64,000 bases of DNA from Frankiaceae bacterium. Lineage in GTDB: Bacteria > Actinomycetota > Actinomycetes > BP-191. How positions within the stretch are numbered: the first letter of the stretch is position 1; every line of letters begins with the position of its first letter. Below are positions 2,691 to 8,751 of this stretch, in pieces. The notes under the pieces are model-generated. The model had not been told where the DNA came from. It saw only the letters and a list, made by a program, of their open reading frames with translations, and did no database searches. Position numbers and translations under genes: made by a program. The stretch is taken from assembly GCA_035536815.1 (NCBI GenBank), contig DATLNJ010000033.1, positions 11,315 to 75,314 on the forward strand, in the 5' to 3' direction.

Positions 2691-3227
2691 TTGCGGTCTG
2701 GCGTCGTCGTCGCGTGCGCGCTCGCGTACGGCGTGCTGCTCGCTGCGCCCGCGGCCGCGCAGGAGCCGAGCGAGTCGCCGTCGTCGTCGCCGACGAGCAG
2801 CCCGAGCTCGGAGCCGACCACGCCGCCGCCGTCCTGCCCGCCGCCCGGGGTGCCGCCGCTGTGCCGGACGCCCTCGCCCACGCGGACCCCGGTGCCGCCG
2901 ACCTGGTCCCCGACCGCGGCGCCCACGACCATGACGCCGACCCCGACGCGGACGCGCTTCCGGACGTACCAGCCGCCGCCGCCGACGTTCGCGCCGCCCG
3001 TCACGCGCACCCCGACGCCGGCCAGCACGCTTCCGCCGTTGCGCACGCTGAGCCTCGAGCCGACACCCGAACCGGTGCCCACGACGCAGGCCCCTCCGGT
3101 CGAGAACGCCGCCTCCGGCGGCACCAGCACCACGTCGCTCGCGGTCGGCGGCCTCGTGCTCGTCGTCCTGCTCGGCGCGGGCGGTGTGGTCGGCCTCTAC
3201 CTGACGCGGGAGACCGAGGCGATGTAG
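2691..3227 (+). CDS. Pro/Ser/Thr-rich secreted protein with C-terminal membrane anchor
   Basis: ORF 2592..3227. TTG at 2691 follows GGGGAG. Signal peptide VVVACALAYGVLLAAPAAAQEP, long P/T/S low-complexity stretch, C-terminal TM LAVGGLVLVVLLGAGGVVGLYL. Start uncertain. Confidence 0.5.
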   Translation: MRSGVVVACALAYGVLLAAPAAAQEPSESPSSSPTSSPSSEPTTPPPSCPPPGVPPLCRTPSPTRTPVPPTWSPTAAPTTMTPTPTRTRFRTYQPPPPTFAPPVTRTPTPASTLPPLRTLSLEPTPEPVPTTQAPPVENAASGGTSTTSLAVGGLVLVVLLGAGGVVGLYLTRETEAM

Positions 3228-3237
3228 GAAGTCGTCC

Positions 3238-3576
3238 ATGGCCGACGACTGCTTGTTCTGCCGACTGGTCGCGGGGGAGATCCCGGCGACCGTCGTGCGC
3301 GAGACCGACGACACGCTCGCGTTCCGCGACATCAGCCCCAGGGCGCCGGTGCACGTGCTCGTCGTGCCCAAGGCGCACCACGCGAACGTCGGCGACCTCG
3401 CCGCCGCCGACCCGTCGCTCGCGGCGCGGCTGGTGGCCGAGGCCGCGACCGTCGCCGCCGCGGAGGGCGTAGGGGACGCGTGGCGGCTGGTGTTCAACAC
3501 CGGCGCCGGCGTCGGGCAGACCGTCTTCCACGTGCACGCGCACGTGCTTGGCGGCGGCGCGATCGAGGCGATGTGA
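3238..3576 (+). CDS. histidine triad (HIT) family nucleotide hydrolase
   Basis: 112 aa with HIT motif VFHVHAHVLGG and typical N-terminus CLFCRLVAGEIPA. Confidence 0.9.
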   Translation: MADDCLFCRLVAGEIPATVVRETDDTLAFRDISPRAPVHVLVVPKAHHANVGDLAAADPSLAARLVAEAATVAAAEGVGDAWRLVFNTGAGVGQTVFHVHAHVLGGGAIEAM

Positions 3577-4895
3577 GCGCCGCCGACGCGTGCCAGAAGC
3601 TCGTCCGGGAGAAGCAGGCCGACCGGCGGCTGCCGAGCGTCAGCGCGGTGGTGTTCCGCGGCGGTGACCAGCTCTGGTACGGCGCCGCCGGGTCGGCGGC
3701 GCTCGACCCGCCGGCGCCGCCCATCGCCGACACGCAGTACCGGCTCGGCTCGATCACGAAGACGTTCACCGCGGTCCTCGTCATGCAGCTGCGCGACGAG
3801 GGGCGGCTCGACCTCGACGACCGGATCGGGCAGCACCTGCCCGACGCGCCGCACGGCGCGCCGACGATCCGCCGCCTGCTCTGCCACCTGTCCGGCCTGC
3901 AACGCGAGCCGGTCGGCGAGGTCTGGGAGACGCTCGTCCCGCCGGCCCGCGAGGAGCTGCTCGGCAACTACGCGGGGGCCGAGTTCGTCCTCCCGCCGAA
4001 CCGCCGCTGGCACTACTCCAACCTCGCCTACGCCCTCCTCGGCGAGGTCGTCGCGCGGCTCACCGGCGGCGCGTGGGAGGAGGCGTTGCGCGACCGCCTG
4101 CTCACGCCGCTCGGGCTGGCGCGCACGACGCTGGAGCCCGAGGCGCCGTACGCGCAGGGGTACTTCGTGCACCCGTACGCCGACCGCGCGGCGGAGGAGC
4201 CGTACCTGCGGATGGCCGGCACCGCGAGCGCCGCGCAGCTCTGGGCGTCGGCCTCGGACCTCGCGAAGTGGGGCGCGTTCGTCCTCGCGCCGGACCCGGC
4301 GGTGCTCGCGCCCGAGACCCTGGCAGAGATGACGCACCTGCACGCGATGGCCGACCAGGAAGGGTGGGCGCTCGCGTGGGGGCTCGGCTGGATGCTGTTC
4401 CGGCACGACGGGCGCATCCTCACCGGCCACACCGGCGGCATGCCGGGCCATCTCGCGGGGCTCGCCGTCTCGCGCAAGGACGGCGTCGGCGCGGCCGTGT
4501 TCTGCAACGGCTCGGCGTCGTTCGAGCCGGGTCCGTTCGCGTGCGAGCTGGTCTCCACGTGGCTCGCGCAGGACCCCGCGCCGCCGGCGGAGTGGGCGCC
4601 CGGCGCGCCGGTGCCGGCGGCGTACGAGACAGCGCTCGGCCGCTGGTGGACCGAGGGCAGCGAGTTCGTGTTCTCGTGGCGCGAGGGCCGGCTCCAGGCG
4701 CTGCCGGTCGGGGCGCCGAAGACGCTGCCGCCGGCGGTGTTCGAGCCGGCCGGCAAGGACGCGTTCCGCGGCGTGTCGGGGCGCGAGCAGGGCGAGTGGC
4801 TGCGGCTGGTCCGCGACGACGGGGGCAACGTCACCAAGATGTACTGGGCGACGTACCCGCTGACCCGCGAGCCGGTGACGTTCGGCGCGACGTAG
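3573..4895 (+). CDS. serine hydrolase, beta-lactamase/transpeptidase-like family
   Basis: SxxK motif SITKTFTAVLVMQLRDEGRLDLDD. GTG at 3573 overlaps the HIT stop (ATGTGA). The part of the ORF upstream of 3573 overlaps the HIT gene. Confidence 0.8.
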   Translation: MSAADACQKLVREKQADRRLPSVSAVVFRGGDQLWYGAAGSAALDPPAPPIADTQYRLGSITKTFTAVLVMQLRDEGRLDLDDRIGQHLPDAPHGAPTIRRLLCHLSGLQREPVGEVWETLVPPAREELLGNYAGAEFVLPPNRRWHYSNLAYALLGEVVARLTGGAWEEALRDRLLTPLGLARTTLEPEAPYAQGYFVHPYADRAAEEPYLRMAGTASAAQLWASASDLAKWGAFVLAPDPAVLAPETLAEMTHLHAMADQEGWALAWGLGWMLFRHDGRILTGHTGGMPGHLAGLAVSRKDGVGAAVFCNGSASFEPGPFACELVSTWLAQDPAPPAEWAPGAPVPAAYETALGRWWTEGSEFVFSWREGRLQALPVGAPKTLPPAVFEPAGKDAFRGVSGREQGEWLRLVRDDGGNVTKMYWATYPLTREPVTFGAT

Positions 4896-4905
4896 GATCA
4901 CGGCA

Positions 4906-6996
4906 ATGGCCGACATCGTGAAGACGAAGATCGTCGTCCCCGGCGCCCACTCCATGGTCAGCCTGCTCGGCCAGCGCGACGAGCTCCTGACGATCGTCGA
5001 GCGCGCGTTCCGCGCGGACATCATGGTCCGCGGCAACGAGATCACCGTCACCGGCGACGCCGGCGAGGTGCCGCTCGCCGTGAAGCTTTTCGAGGAGCTC
5101 ATCACGCTGCTCGACAAGGGCGACGAGCTGACCGGCGAGACCGTGGAGCGTTCGCTGCACATGCTGCGGCGGTCCGAGACGGCGAGCCCGGCCGAGGTGC
5201 TTTCGCTCAACATCCTGTCGTCGCGCGGCCGCACCATCCGGCCCAAGACGCTCAACCAGAAGCGCTACGTCGACGCCATCGACAAGCACACGATCGTCTT
5301 CGCGATCGGGCCGGCCGGTACCGGCAAGACGTACCTCGCGATGGCCAAGGCCGTGCAGGCGCTGCAGGCCAAGCAGGTCAACCGGATCATCCTGACCCGC
5401 CCGGCCGTTGAGGCGGGGGAGCGGCTCGGGTTCCTGCCAGGGACGCTGTTCGACAAGATCGACCCGTACCTGCGCCCGCTCGTCGACGCGCTGCACGACA
5501 TGGTCGACCCCGAGTCGATCCCGCGGCTGATGGCGGCCGGCACCATCGAGGTCGCGCCGCTCGCCTTCATGCGTGGCCGCGCGCAGCCGGTGGAGACGCC
5601 CGTCCTCACGCCGGACGGCTGGCGGCGCATCGGCAGCCTGCGCGTCGGCGACCTCGTCGTCGGCTCCGACGGCCGCCCGACACCGGTGCTCGGGGTCTAC
5701 CCGCAGGGGCGCAAGAAGGTCTACCGGGTCGCGGCACAGGACGGCGCGGCGACGTACGCGTGCGGCGAGCACCTCTGGGCCGTGACGACGCGGGACGACC
5801 GCAGGCGCGGCAAGCCGGCCCGCGTCGTGACGACCGGGGACATGCGCGGGCGGCTGCGGGCGTGGCACACGCACCGGTACGAGCTGCCGCTCGTCCGCCC
5901 CGTGGAGCTCGTTACGCGCGACGTCCCGCTCGACCCGTACGCGCTCGGCCTGCTGCTCGGCGACGGCTGCCTCACGACGAGCACGACGCCGTCGTTCGCG
6001 ACGGCTGACCCGGAGCTCGCCGTCGCGCTGGACGCCGCGTTGCCGGGCATCGAGGTCCGGCACAAGGCCGGCGTCGACTACGTCCTGCGCCACGCCGGAG
6101 CTGGCCGCGGCGGTCTCCGGGTCGCCAACCCGGTCACCGAGGTGCTCAGGGACCTCGGGCTGGCGGGCACGCGCTCCGCGACCAAGTTCGTGCCAGTCTG
6201 CTACCTGCTCAACTCCGCCGAAGTCCGGCTGGCCGTCCTGCAGGGACTGCTCGACAGCGACGGCGGTCCGGTCCGGCAGCGCGGGCGCACCTGCCGGGTG
6301 CAGTACACGACCTGCTCCGACCGGCTGCGCGACGACGTCGTGTTCCTCGTCCGTTCGCTGGGCGGCGTCGCGTACACCCGTACCCGTCGCGCGGCCGGAC
6401 GCGCTCCCGGCGGCACCGCCGAGCGGCCGATCGTGCACCGCCACGACGCGCACGTCGTGGACGTCCGGCTGCCGGCCGGCATGGCGCCGTTCCGGCTGCG
6501 CCGCAAGGCCGACGCGTACGCCGCGGCCGACGGTGGCGGGCAGCCGAAGCGGTTCGTGGACTCGATCGAGCCGGCGGGCGAGACCGAGTGCGTGTGCATC
6601 GCGGTCGGCGCCGCGGACTCGCTCTACGTCACCAGCGACTTCCTCGTCACGCACAACACGCTCAACGATGCGTTCATCATCCTGGACGAGGCGCAGAACA
6701 CCTCGCCCGAGCAGATGAAGATGTTCCTCACCCGGCTCGGCTTCGGGTCGCGGATCGTTGTCACCGGCGACGTCACGCAGGTGGACCTGCCGAGCGGCAC
6801 GCAGAGCGGCCTGCGCGTCGTCAGCGAGATCCTCGACGGCATCGAGGACGTGTTCTTCACCAAGCTCGGCAGCGCCGACGTCGTACGCCACAAGCTGGTC
6901 AGCGAGATCGTGGATGCGTACGCGAAGTTCGACGCGGAGAACAACGCCTCCCGCGCCGCCACCGACCGCGGCACCCGCCGGTCGCCGCGCCGATGA
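4906..6996 (+). CDS. phoH: PhoH-like ATPase interrupted by an in-frame intein
   Basis: Walker [12 protein letters not shown], then LAFMRGR | 359-aa insert | [28 protein letters not shown]. With the insert removed the exteins give 337 aa, a normal PhoH length. Confidence 0.9.
5581..6657 (+). mobile_element. intein (359 aa) with LAGLIDADG homing-endonuclease domain inside phoH
   Basis: Starts [28 protein letters not shown] (block A-like, Ala1). Block B is GEHLW. Two LAGLIDADG motifs ([24 protein letters not shown]). Block F is TECVCIAV. Ends FLVTHN followed by Thr+1. Confidence 0.85.
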
Positions 6997-7469
6997 GCGT
7001 CTTCGTCGCCAACGAGAGCGGCACCGCGGTCGACGAGGAGTCGCTCGTCGCGGTCGCGCGGCACGTCCTCGACGAGATGGGCGTCGCGCCGATGGCCGAG
7101 CTGTCCATCCTGCTGGTCGACGCCGACGCGATGGAGCAGCTGCACGTCCGCTGGATGAACGAGCCGGGCCCGACCGACGTCATGGCGTTCCCGATGGACG
7201 AGCTCGAAGGCACGCGGATGTCCGCGCACCCCGGCGACGACGAGCCGCCGGAGCCGGCGCTGCTCGGCGACGTGGTGCTCTGCCCGGCGGTCGCCGCGAA
7301 GCAGGCAGAGACGGCCGGTCACACGATGGCCGACGAGCTGCACCTGCTCTGCACGCACGGCGTCCTGCACCTGCTCGGCTTCGACCACGCGGAGCCCGAG
7401 GAGGAGCAGGCGATGTTCCGCGAGCAGGCCAGGCTGCTCGCGTCCTGGCGCGCGCGCACCGCGGGCTGA
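6993..7469 (+). CDS. ybeY: rRNA maturation endoribonuclease YbeY
   Basis: ATG at 6993 overlaps the phoH stop (ATGA). Metal site [11 protein letters not shown]. Conserved phoH-ybeY synteny. Confidence 0.9.
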
Positions 7470-7473
7470 CGCG

Positions 7474-8751
7474 ATGCCACAGGACACGCCGCTGCTCGTG
7501 CTGGCCTTCGTGCTGGTCGTGCTGGCCGGGCTGTTCGCGATGGTCGAGGCGGCGATCGCGCGCACGTCGCGGGTCCGCGCCGACGCGCTCGTCCGCGACG
7601 GGCGGCGCGGCGCCGAACGCCTCCACACGATCACCGACGACGCCCCGCGCTACCTGAACCTCGTTCTCCTGCTGCGGCTGCTCGCCGAGCTCACCGCCGT
7701 GTCGATCGTGACCGCGATCATCATCGGCGCGCGTGGCGGCGGCCGGCTGTCGATCCTCATCTCGGCCGGGCTGATGGTCGTGGTGTCGTACGTCCTCGTC
7801 GGGGTCGCGCCGCGCACGATCGGCGTCCAGCACTCCGACACCGTCGCCCTCAACTCGGCGGGCGCCGTCATCTGGCTCACCCGGCTGTTCGGCCCGCTGC
7901 CCAAGCTGCTGATCCTCGTCGGCAACGCCGTCACGCCCGGTCGCGGCCTGGCCAGCGGCCCGTTCGCCTCCGAGGCGGAGCTGCGCGACCTCGTCGACCT
8001 CGCCCAGGCGGGGCAGGTCATCGAGCAGGGCGAGCGCGACATGATCCACTCGGTCTTCGAGCTCGGCGACACGCTGGTCCGCGAGGTGATGGTGCCGCGG
8101 CCGGACATCGTGTTCATCGAGCACGGCAAGACCGTCCGCCAGGCGCTCAACCTCGCGCTGCGTTCCGGCTTCTCCCGGCTGCCGGTCATCCGCGAGAACG
8201 CCGACGACGTGATCGGGGTCGCGTACCTCAAGGACCTGGTCCGCCGGTCGCAGGAGGGCAAGGACGACGCGAAGGTCGAGGAGTTCGCGCGCACGCCGGC
8301 GTTCGTCCCCGACTCCAAGCCGATCGACGAGCTGCTCCGTGAGATGCAGAAGGACCAGACGCACATGGCCGTCGTCGTGGACGAGTACGGCGGCACCGCC
8401 GGCATCGTCACGATCGAGGACATCCTCGAGGAGATCGTCGGCGAGATCGCGGACGAGTACGACAAGGAGACGCCGGCCGTCGAGCAGGTGGACGAGCGGA
8501 CCGTCCGCGTCACCGCGCGGATGCCGATCGACGAGATCAACGACCTGTTCGATGTGGAGCTGCCGTCCGACGACGTCGAGACGATCGGCGGCCTGATGGC
8601 CCGCGAGCTGGGCCGGGTACCGATCCCCGGTGCGACGGTGACGGTGGCCGGGCTGACGTTCGTGGCGGAGTCGGCGAAGGGCCGCCGCAACCGGATCGGC
8701 ACCGTGTTGATCACCCGGAACACGCCGGACCGGTCACCCGCCGGCTCCTGA
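7474..8751 (+). CDS. hemolysin-family membrane protein (DUF21-CBS pair-CorC/HlyC)
   Basis: 425 aa. N-terminal TM helices, CBS region (VREVMVPRPDIVFIE ... VIGVAYLKDL), C-terminal transporter-associated domain. Synteny after ybeY. Confidence 0.85.
   Translation: MPQDTPLLVLAFVLVVLAGLFAMVEAAIARTSRVRADALVRDGRRGAERLHTITDDAPRYLNLVLLLRLLAELTAVSIVTAIIIGARGGGRLSILISAGLMVVVSYVLVGVAPRTIGVQHSDTVALNSAGAVIWLTRLFGPLPKLLILVGNAVTPGRGLASGPFASEAELRDLVDLAQAGQVIEQGERDMIHSVFELGDTLVREVMVPRPDIVFIEHGKTVRQALNLALRSGFSRLPVIRENADDVIGVAYLKDLVRRSQEGKDDAKVEEFARTPAFVPDSKPIDELLREMQKDQTHMAVVVDEYGGTAGIVTIEDILEEIVGEIADEYDKETPAVEQVDERTVRVTARMPIDEINDLFDVELPSDDVETIGGLMARELGRVPIPGATVTVAGLTFVAESAKGRRNRIGTVLITRNTPDRSPAGS

Follow-up and report, generated by a model that had tools for sequence, protein, structure and literature searches.

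A probable class 3 intein with an embedded LAGLIDADG homing endonuclease in the PhoH ATPase of a Frankiaceae bacterium

Class 3 inteins are defined by the absence of an N-terminal nucleophile, together with a tryptophan at position B:12, a cysteine at F:4, and a threonine at G:5, the WCT triad (Tori et al., 2010, PMC2807308; PMC3196547). The residue following the intein (+1) is usually serine or threonine, and the cysteine at F:4 is the obligate nucleophile (PMC2807308; PMC3196547). The class 3 PhoH inteins of Mycobacterium fortuitum (OBK00716) and M. xenopi (EID13626) have been aligned with DnaB inteins (Kelley et al., 2018, Nat Commun, Fig. 6a, PMC6195587). A census by Novikova et al. includes 21 PhoH inteins, from Actinobacteria and Deinococcus-Thermus (PMC4760082), and M. 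smegmatis is said to have one as well (PMC7360933). Described here is the phoH gene of a Frankiaceae bacterium, found within a stretch of 64,000 nucleotides (assembly GCA_035536815.1, contig DATLNJ010000033.1, positions 11,315 to 75,314 of the forward strand) that is referred to as the window and to which all coordinates below belong. This phoH carries an insert that is very likely a full-length class 3 intein with an embedded PI-SceI-type LAGLIDADG homing endonuclease, as had been proposed in a preliminary description made without database searches.

The PhoH intein family has already been published in mycobacteria and is common across Actinobacteria, and the copy in the window is a real but ordinary member. 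It shares the host protein and the class 3 signature of the mycobacterial PhoH inteins, but comes from a different actinobacterium. In M. kyorinense (L026) and Mycobacterium sp. M26 (L068) the insertion site is identical (MRGR/A…THN/TLND), with 65-68% identity over the full length; judged by way of these other mycobacterial loci, the window intein is probably orthologous to those of M. fortuitum and M. xenopi.

The insertion in phoH

The host gene is made up of the following parts, with lengths in amino acids (aa).

4906..6996, + strand: phoH precursor open reading frame (N-extein, intein, C-extein), 696 aa plus stop, identified from the list of open reading frames, Pfam, and gene order
4906..5580, + strand: N-extein, 225 aa, ending in APLAFMRGR; MRGR precedes the intein in 79/80 related loci
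5308-5331, + strand: Walker A motif GPAGTGKT in the N-extein
5581..6657, + strand: intein, 359 aa, from Ala1 to Asn359 (AQPVETP…DFLVTHN), delimited by the empty site in contig L083 and by homology to the class 3 prototype
6658..6996, + strand: C-extein, 112 aa plus stop
6679-6699, + strand: Walker B motif ILDEAQN in the C-extein

In the precursor, the Pfam PhoH domain (PF02562, expect value (E) 1.6e-88) is matched in two separate stretches. Between them lie a LAGLIDADG_3 match (E 2.4e-8), which is over the Pfam cut-off, and weak Hint matches; taken alone, the Hint models fall under the gathering cut-offs. Positions 5581-6657 of the + strand form 359 open codons in frame with the gene, with the codon of Thr+1 (ACG, 6658-6660) directly after them. 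The insertion point lies between Arg225 and a conserved threonine, and this Thr+1 is 9 residues upstream of the Walker B aspartate (D594). Upon removal of the insert, the predicted spliced PhoH is 337 aa long (696 - 359) and has a native MRGR-TLND junction. The intein-removed protein aligned to the PhoH of Corynebacterium glutamicum (3b85) with no gap over the junction (E 9e-103). Since a shift of one residue would not restore MRGRT, the boundaries of the intein are unambiguous. RGRT is present twice in PhoH, and one of the two copies is that of MRGRTLND.

The closest match to the exteins is protein P0122, at 93% identity, which is encoded on contig L083 and provides an empty allele of this site. 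Window positions 3082-5579 and 6658-8717 align by BLASTN to contiguous L083 sequence at 84-86% nucleotide identity, and L083 is without exactly the 1077-bp intein segment. Its empty site reads GTGGCGCCGCTGGCGTACATGCGCGGCCGT up to the insertion point and ACGCTTAACGACGCGTTCATCATCCTCGAC after it; over 60 nt at the junction, 51/60 are identical between the window and L083, and the encoded peptide differs at one residue, Phe/Tyr. The preliminary description had stated that PhoH becomes contiguous once 359 residues are removed, that the spliced product has 337 aa, and that the host site adjoins Walker B. All three statements hold: the first through the gapless alignment to 3b85 and the empty site of L083, the second by subtraction, and the third by the 9-residue distance to the Walker B aspartate.

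The identity of the host protein is supported by its PhoH domain, its Walker A and Walker B motifs, and its neighbors. The gene order around phoH in the window is a beta-lactamase-like gene, phoH, ybeY, and a CNNM/CBS gene; the order is the same in L083, and the synteny between the two extends to Era. An antisense open reading frame of 686 aa (window 4831-6891, - strand) overlaps nearly all of phoH, and other long overlapping frames occur throughout the window. These are expected artefacts rather than genes, because the G+C content of the window is 73% and that of its third codon positions (GC3) is about 0.96.

Splicing blocks, endonuclease domain, and described relatives

The intein contains the following elements.

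5581..5619, + strand: block A; residue 1 is Ala (GCG, 5581-5583)
5758..5778, + strand: block B core ACGEHLW, with Cys61 (B:7), His64 (B:10), and Trp66 (B:12), placed by the alignments to the prototype and to gp41-1_WCT
5896..6540, + strand: homing endonuclease domain, about residues 106-320 (approximate boundaries), from Pfam LAGLIDADG_3, the PI-SceI alignment, Foldseek, and the ratio of nonsynonymous to synonymous substitution rates (dN/dS)
5944..5970, + strand: LAGLIDADG motif 1, LGLLLGDGC, with the putative catalytic Asp128 at 5962-5964; aligned to LGLWLGDG of the Bethlehem intein
6184..6186, + strand: Lys202, equivalent of PI-SceI Lys301 in the HMMER alignment
6238..6267, + strand: LAGLIDADG motif 2, with the putative catalytic Asp227 at 6259-6261; aligned to PI-SceI D326 and to LRGLIDSDGG of the Bethlehem intein
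6586..6633, + strand: block F; Cys339 (6595-6597) occupies F:4 and would be both the first nucleophile and the branch point
6637..6660, + strand: block G, DFLVTHN+T, with Thr357 (G:5), His358, Asn359, and Thr+1, from the prototype alignment

The class assignment is carried by the alignment to the class 3 prototype, the 341-aa intein of mycobacteriophage Bethlehem. In BLASTP the insert aligned to it end to end in a single alignment (E 2e-25, 28% identity), in which His64 paired with His65, Trp66 with Trp67, Cys339 with Cys320, Thr357 with Thr339, His358 with His340, Asn359 with Asn341, and Thr+1 with Thr+1. Both LAGLIDADG motifs were paired as well. The Bethlehem residues in these pairs are the ones mutated in the prototype study (Tori et al., PMC2807308). 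The two inteins have the same arrangement of a Hint domain interrupted by a double-LAGLIDADG endonuclease and the same spacing of 10 residues between Cys F:4 and the aromatic residue of block F. The Bethlehem intein differs in its terminase host and insertion site, in having Pro1 and a serine at B:7, and in its length of 341 aa versus 359 aa. Named "MP-Be DnaB", the prototype lies in the Bethlehem terminase gene, whose 904-aa protein is annotated gp11; its host is gp10, TerL1-c, in the naming of Kelley et al. (2016). A TBLASTN search of Bethlehem positions 25-52 kb did not find the prototype intein, and the gp52 "phosphoesterase" was rejected as its host, as the intein that it contains is a different one, described by Kelley et al. 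(2016) as the RDF intein.

Matches to solved structures agree with this assignment. In HMMER searches of the PDB, the matches below E 0.05 were gp41-1 (including gp41-1_WCT, 6riz), MchDnaB1 (6rix/6riy), and Msm DnaBi1 (6bs8), at E 1e-12 to 6e-8; other inteins appeared only at E > 0.05, and the repetitive designed protein 7on7 was the sole non-intein exception. Against 6riz, EHLW and C-I…THN were aligned, placing His64 on His63, Trp66 on Trp65, and Cys339 on Cys107. By both sequence and fold, the nearest solved mini-inteins are gp41-1, which is class 1, and the class 3 DnaB1 inteins. Msm DnaBi1 and Mch DnaB1 (E 4e-8 to 6e-8) share the class 3 triad and Ala1 with the window intein, but are mini-inteins without an endonuclease, reside in DnaB, and have Asp at B:7.

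These comparisons bear out, point by point, what the preliminary description had read from the sequence. Residue 1 is Ala, so the intein lacks an N-terminal nucleophile; GEHLW has its tryptophan two residues after the block B histidine (codons 5770-5772 for His64, 5776-5778 for Trp66); and the insert ends in Thr357-His358-Asn359 (6649-6657) followed by Thr+1. The cysteine noted in block F could be placed more precisely, since ECVCIAV contains two, Cys337 and Cys339, of which the second is F:4. An alignment in which Trp, Cys, and Thr missed B:12, F:4, and G:5 had been named as grounds for refutation; all three are in register with the Bethlehem prototype. The two LAGLIDADG motifs that had been described are also present, with both aspartates kept and a PI-SceI-like fold in the predicted structure. 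The insert thus combines an in-frame position, blocks A, B, F, and G, a Hint fold, and a C-terminal His-Asn followed by Thr+1, with Ala1 and the complete class 3 triad.

The endonuclease fold sits between blocks B and F. Asp326 and Lys301 are catalytic residues of PI-SceI, and their counterparts are Asp227 and Lys202, with Asp128 provided by motif 1. An AlphaFold2 model of the intein (predicted local distance difference test, pLDDT, 79.7; predicted template modeling score, pTM, 0.80) matched PI-SceI in Foldseek at E 1e-17 with a template modeling (TM) score of 0.66. Across PI-SceI, the Tli and Pho VMA inteins, and PI-PfuI, E ranged from 1e-17 to 5e-9 with TM scores up to 0.67, and I-DmoI was matched too. 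PI-SceI and the Tli and Pho VMA inteins were matched over both domains of the model, while among mini-inteins MchDnaB1, Msm DnaBi1, and gp41-1 ranked first. PI-SceI (VMA1) and the Tli and Pho VMA inteins share the two-domain architecture, and motif 2 and Lys301 align to D227 and K202; however, they are class 1 inteins (Cys1, Cys+1) of archaeal or eukaryotic origin and are only 16-18% identical to the window intein.

The splicing mechanism, proposed by homology to the class 3 Bethlehem, Dra Snf2, and Msm and Mch DnaB inteins, would involve a branched thioester on the block F cysteine. In the translated precursor, the Cys339 thiol, held in position by Trp66 and Thr357 and assisted by His64, would attack the peptide bond between Arg225 and Ala1. 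The product would be a branched thioester at block F carrying the N-extein. By transesterification the N-extein would then pass to the Thr+1 hydroxyl, forming the branched ester that is standard at block G; cyclisation of Asn359 with the aid of His358 would free the intein, and an O-to-N acyl shift would yield the 337-aa PhoH with its MRGR-TLND junction. The unspliced precursor is expected to lack ATPase activity, because the intein lies 9 residues before the Walker B aspartate. In phoH alleles that lack the intein, the endonuclease would presumably cleave the DNA at this site and thereby promote homing.

Among phages, the nearest relatives include inteins of class 3 type from terminases, helicases, and other ATPases, and the two that were inspected, Phrappuccino gp2 and GX15bay, both carry the WCT triad. 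The closest is the terminase intein of Mycobacterium phage Phrappuccino gp2, at 40.8% identity over 100% of the intein. It begins with Ala-Gln-Pro like the window intein, contains THEW, VQCITV, and THN, and has an endonuclease of the same family; it differs in being inserted after the GK (P-loop-like) motif of the terminase and in having Cys rather than Thr at +1. In GX15bay (Caudovirales, MK557849; L084 517-3339), a 941-aa protein annotated PhoH adjoins the portal gene and contains a class-3-type intein with Leu1, NHRW, AVCIKV, and THN followed by T, inserted at GGS/TNF. As this is not the MRGR/T site, the GX15bay intein was rejected as a phage copy of the PhoH allele; the PhoH label is doubtful, and the protein may be a terminase-like ATPase. 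The names of the phage genes also vary by database. Intein-bearing terminase, helicase, and SNF2 genes are called "DarB-like antirestriction" in RefSeq and terminase, DNA helicase, and SNF2 helicase in their GenBank copies; the former naming may be driven by a shared intein or helicase segment.

Conservation and distribution

The catalytic residues of the splicing domain are conserved without exception. In a MAFFT alignment of the window intein with its best 120 homologues, His64, Trp66, Cys339, Thr357, His358, and Asn359 were invariant (121/121), and the +1 residue was Thr in 120/121 and Ser in 1/121. The endonuclease residues were kept nearly as strictly (Asp128 in 120/121, Asp227 in 121/121, Lys202 in 118/121). 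Of 108 homologues, 97 have Ala as residue 1 and 11 have Ser. Ser1 accompanied by a full WCT triad occurs in about 10% of PhoH inteins (L003, L013, L017, and 11 proteins, e.g. P0027, P0090, and P0104), which, as judged from their sequences, appear to be natural WCT inteins with a potential N-terminal nucleophile. Three inteins of this Ser1 type were found earlier, with their class left open (Tori et al., 2010, PMC2807308).

Both domains of the intein are under purifying selection. A codon comparison of 70 loci, to be read qualitatively because of partial dS saturation and the strong GC bias of the genomes, gave a dN/dS of 0.24 for the N-terminal part of Hint, 0.27 for the endonuclease, and 0.23 for the C-terminal part of Hint, next to 0.22 for the N-extein. 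In the same loci dS was about 1.08 in the intein versus about 0.6 in the flanking exteins. Recent foreign acquisition of the window intein was considered and rejected, as its GC3 of 0.95 is close to that of the exteins (0.96-0.97).

The family is large, and its members occupy one site. The intein as query returned 1404 proteins at E <= 1e-5 in the protein collection; the best 120 of these were without exception PhoH, with 67-78% identity along the full intein for those that cover it completely. No database sequence was more than 78% identical to the window intein, the best in the genome collection was 76% identical, and an exact look-up of the 696-aa precursor in a collection of 15 billion proteins gave no match. 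A scan with one genome per species found an intein relative in at least 593 species representatives. The best 80 of these loci came from many Actinomycetota orders, including Mycobacterium, as well as from a Meiothermus bin and a Myxococcales bin; in 80/80 the intein was followed by the PhoH C-extein. The one locus of the 80 that is not preceded by MRGR, L015 (JBKPDU010000172.1), begins with a contig start that encodes, up to position 63, …GDVYKRQ directly before Ala1. This start is Nextera adapter read-through, a contamination in a public metagenome-assembled genome (MAG). A six-frame profile scan of the window found no second intein of the PhoH-intein family.

Most of the nearest PhoH proteins have the site empty. 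The 120 best matches to the spliced PhoH were 76-93% identical where an identity was returned, and at least 112/120 were contiguous at RGR-(T/S)-L-N; the intein junction MRGR-[AS][QHM]P was found in 0 of the 120. The closest exteins belong to Frankiaceae and Mycobacteriales metagenome bins. A survey of PhoH orthologues for both alleles, which the preliminary description had called for, thus yielded both, with the site empty in at least 112/120 of the best extein matches and occupied in 80/80 of the best intein loci. Two metagenomic PhoH proteins, P0121 (483 aa) and P0132 (440 aa), have a diverged partial duplication of the ATPase core, which in P0121 is joined right after MRGR, the intein insertion point; both are probably chimeric assemblies of two strains.

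Across 70 loci, pairwise intein identity and extein identity were only weakly coupled (Spearman 0.24), with intein identity nearly flat at 64-77% while extein identity ranged from 63 to 87%. In Solirubrobacterales loci the exteins were 65-69% and the intein 66-72% identical. Two loci outside Actinomycetota have the PhoH intein at the same site, L081 (a Meiothermus sp. MAG) and L073 (a Myxococcales MAG, for which a binning error is possible), with the intein 67% and the exteins 63-64% identical to those of the window. The Meiothermus locus agrees with the census of Novikova et al., in which Deinococcus-Thermus is represented among the PhoH inteins. The weak coupling suggests horizontal spread; together with the higher dS of the intein, it is also compatible with saturation or with different codon constraints; since the flat intein identity could be saturation, horizontal transfer is not claimed from identity alone. 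The endonuclease probably still cuts empty phoH alleles, given its retained catalytic residues, the purifying selection on it, and the patchy distribution of the intein.

Alternative explanations and significance

Several points weigh against the reading of the insert as an active class 3 intein with a working endonuclease. Splicing of any PhoH intein is unreported (PMC13347336, 2026). When W, C, and T were grafted onto gp41-1, no splicing intein resulted (PMC7664689), so the triad alone does not guarantee activity. The window copy also has two unusual substitutions. R321Q is unique to it, with Gln in 0/119 homologues that have a residue there and Arg in 116, and the adjacent M323K is rare (3/120 homologues). 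To these may be added the qualitative nature of the dN/dS values and the fact that endonuclease activity is proposed here from motif conservation. The two substitutions fall at window 6541-6549 (residues 321-323, GGGQPKRF), in the nearly invariant GGGRPMRF that links the endonuclease back to block F.

It is possible, although unlikely, that the intein has been domesticated as a conditional-splicing switch. According to this explanation, splicing follows the class 3 pathway, the intein is kept mainly as a regulator of PhoH that is inhibited by oxidation or zinc, and the endonuclease domain is retained for structure or DNA binding rather than homing. The very wide occurrence of the intein, its strong conservation at full length, and its host-like GC3 are consistent with such a role, as is its position adjoining Walker B, which should leave the precursor without ATPase activity. 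The B:7 residue also fits: it is Cys in 107/121 sequences and Ser in the remaining 14, whereas inteins usually have Thr, Ser, or Asp there, with Thr in class 1 inteins, Ser in Bethlehem, and Asp in Msm DnaBi1. In the window intein, Cys61 (5761-5763) forms a CxxH with His64, and Cys337-Val-Cys339 (6589-6597) forms a CxC in block F. A precedent exists in the class 3 DnaBi1, whose catalytic Cys mediates regulation by zinc and by a disulfide (PMC6195587; PMC7360933); its redox-switch partner, Cys48, has no evident counterpart in the PhoH intein. A specific form of this proposal, which is more speculative still and improbable on present evidence, is that Cys61, beside Cys339 and, in the window copy, Cys337, forms a disulfide or zinc site that reversibly blocks the first splicing step, making the PhoH intein a built-in redox/metal switch. 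However, the closest PhoH relatives lack the intein, which is more in keeping with a mobile element than with a fixed regulator, and the endonuclease retains its catalytic Asp, Asp, and Lys. A switch would in any case be compatible with a class 3 intein bearing a homing endonuclease, and the two explanations are not exclusive.

Class 2-like or other chemistry, in which Thr+1 attacks the Arg225-Ala1 bond directly and Cys339 is only structural, is highly unlikely. Ala1 does exclude class 1 chemistry, the KlbA class 2 inteins also start with Ala (PMC2807308), and the failed gp41-1 graft indicates that the triad is not sufficient proof of class 3 splicing. However, KlbA is the only known host of class 2 inteins, which do not have the WCT triplet (PMC3196547), and Cys339, Trp66, and Thr357 are invariant across the 121 sequences. 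The homology to the Bethlehem intein, in which Cys F:4 is absolutely required (PMC2807308), also extends over the full length. A splicing-dead relic that would leave phoH effectively a pseudogene in the source organism is likewise very improbable: although R321Q and M323K in a nearly invariant segment and the existence of an inactive class-3-like intein (Arsp-FB24 Arth_1007, PMC3196547) would fit, the 696-codon frame is unbroken, no catalytic residue of either domain has been lost, the number of highly conserved columns at which the window copy leaves the consensus is typical (6/198; family median, 7), the exteins share 93% identity with an intein-free orthologue, the operon context is intact, and the Arthrobacter relic lacks the Cys F:4 that the window copy retains.

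As a probable class 3 intein with a homing endonuclease, the insert has little discovery value, since class 3 inteins, the WCT signature, their phage links, and the occurrence of PhoH inteins in actinobacteria are all documented. What is gained is a correct annotation, as gene callers give such loci as "PhoH family protein" and NCBIfam is without a model for intein-containing PhoH. The window and L083 supply a clean natural example of each allele, one occupied and one empty, on which homing at this site could be assayed. As an abundant, full-length, class 3 intein whose endonuclease seems intact, the PhoH intein would be handy for studies of class 3 splicing and of conditional splicing outside DnaB. 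If the redox/metal switch were true, the output of active PhoH ATPase, encoded just upstream of the gene for the YbeY RNase, would depend on the stress state of the cell, and the endonuclease would have been retained across hundreds of actinobacterial species for more than homing.

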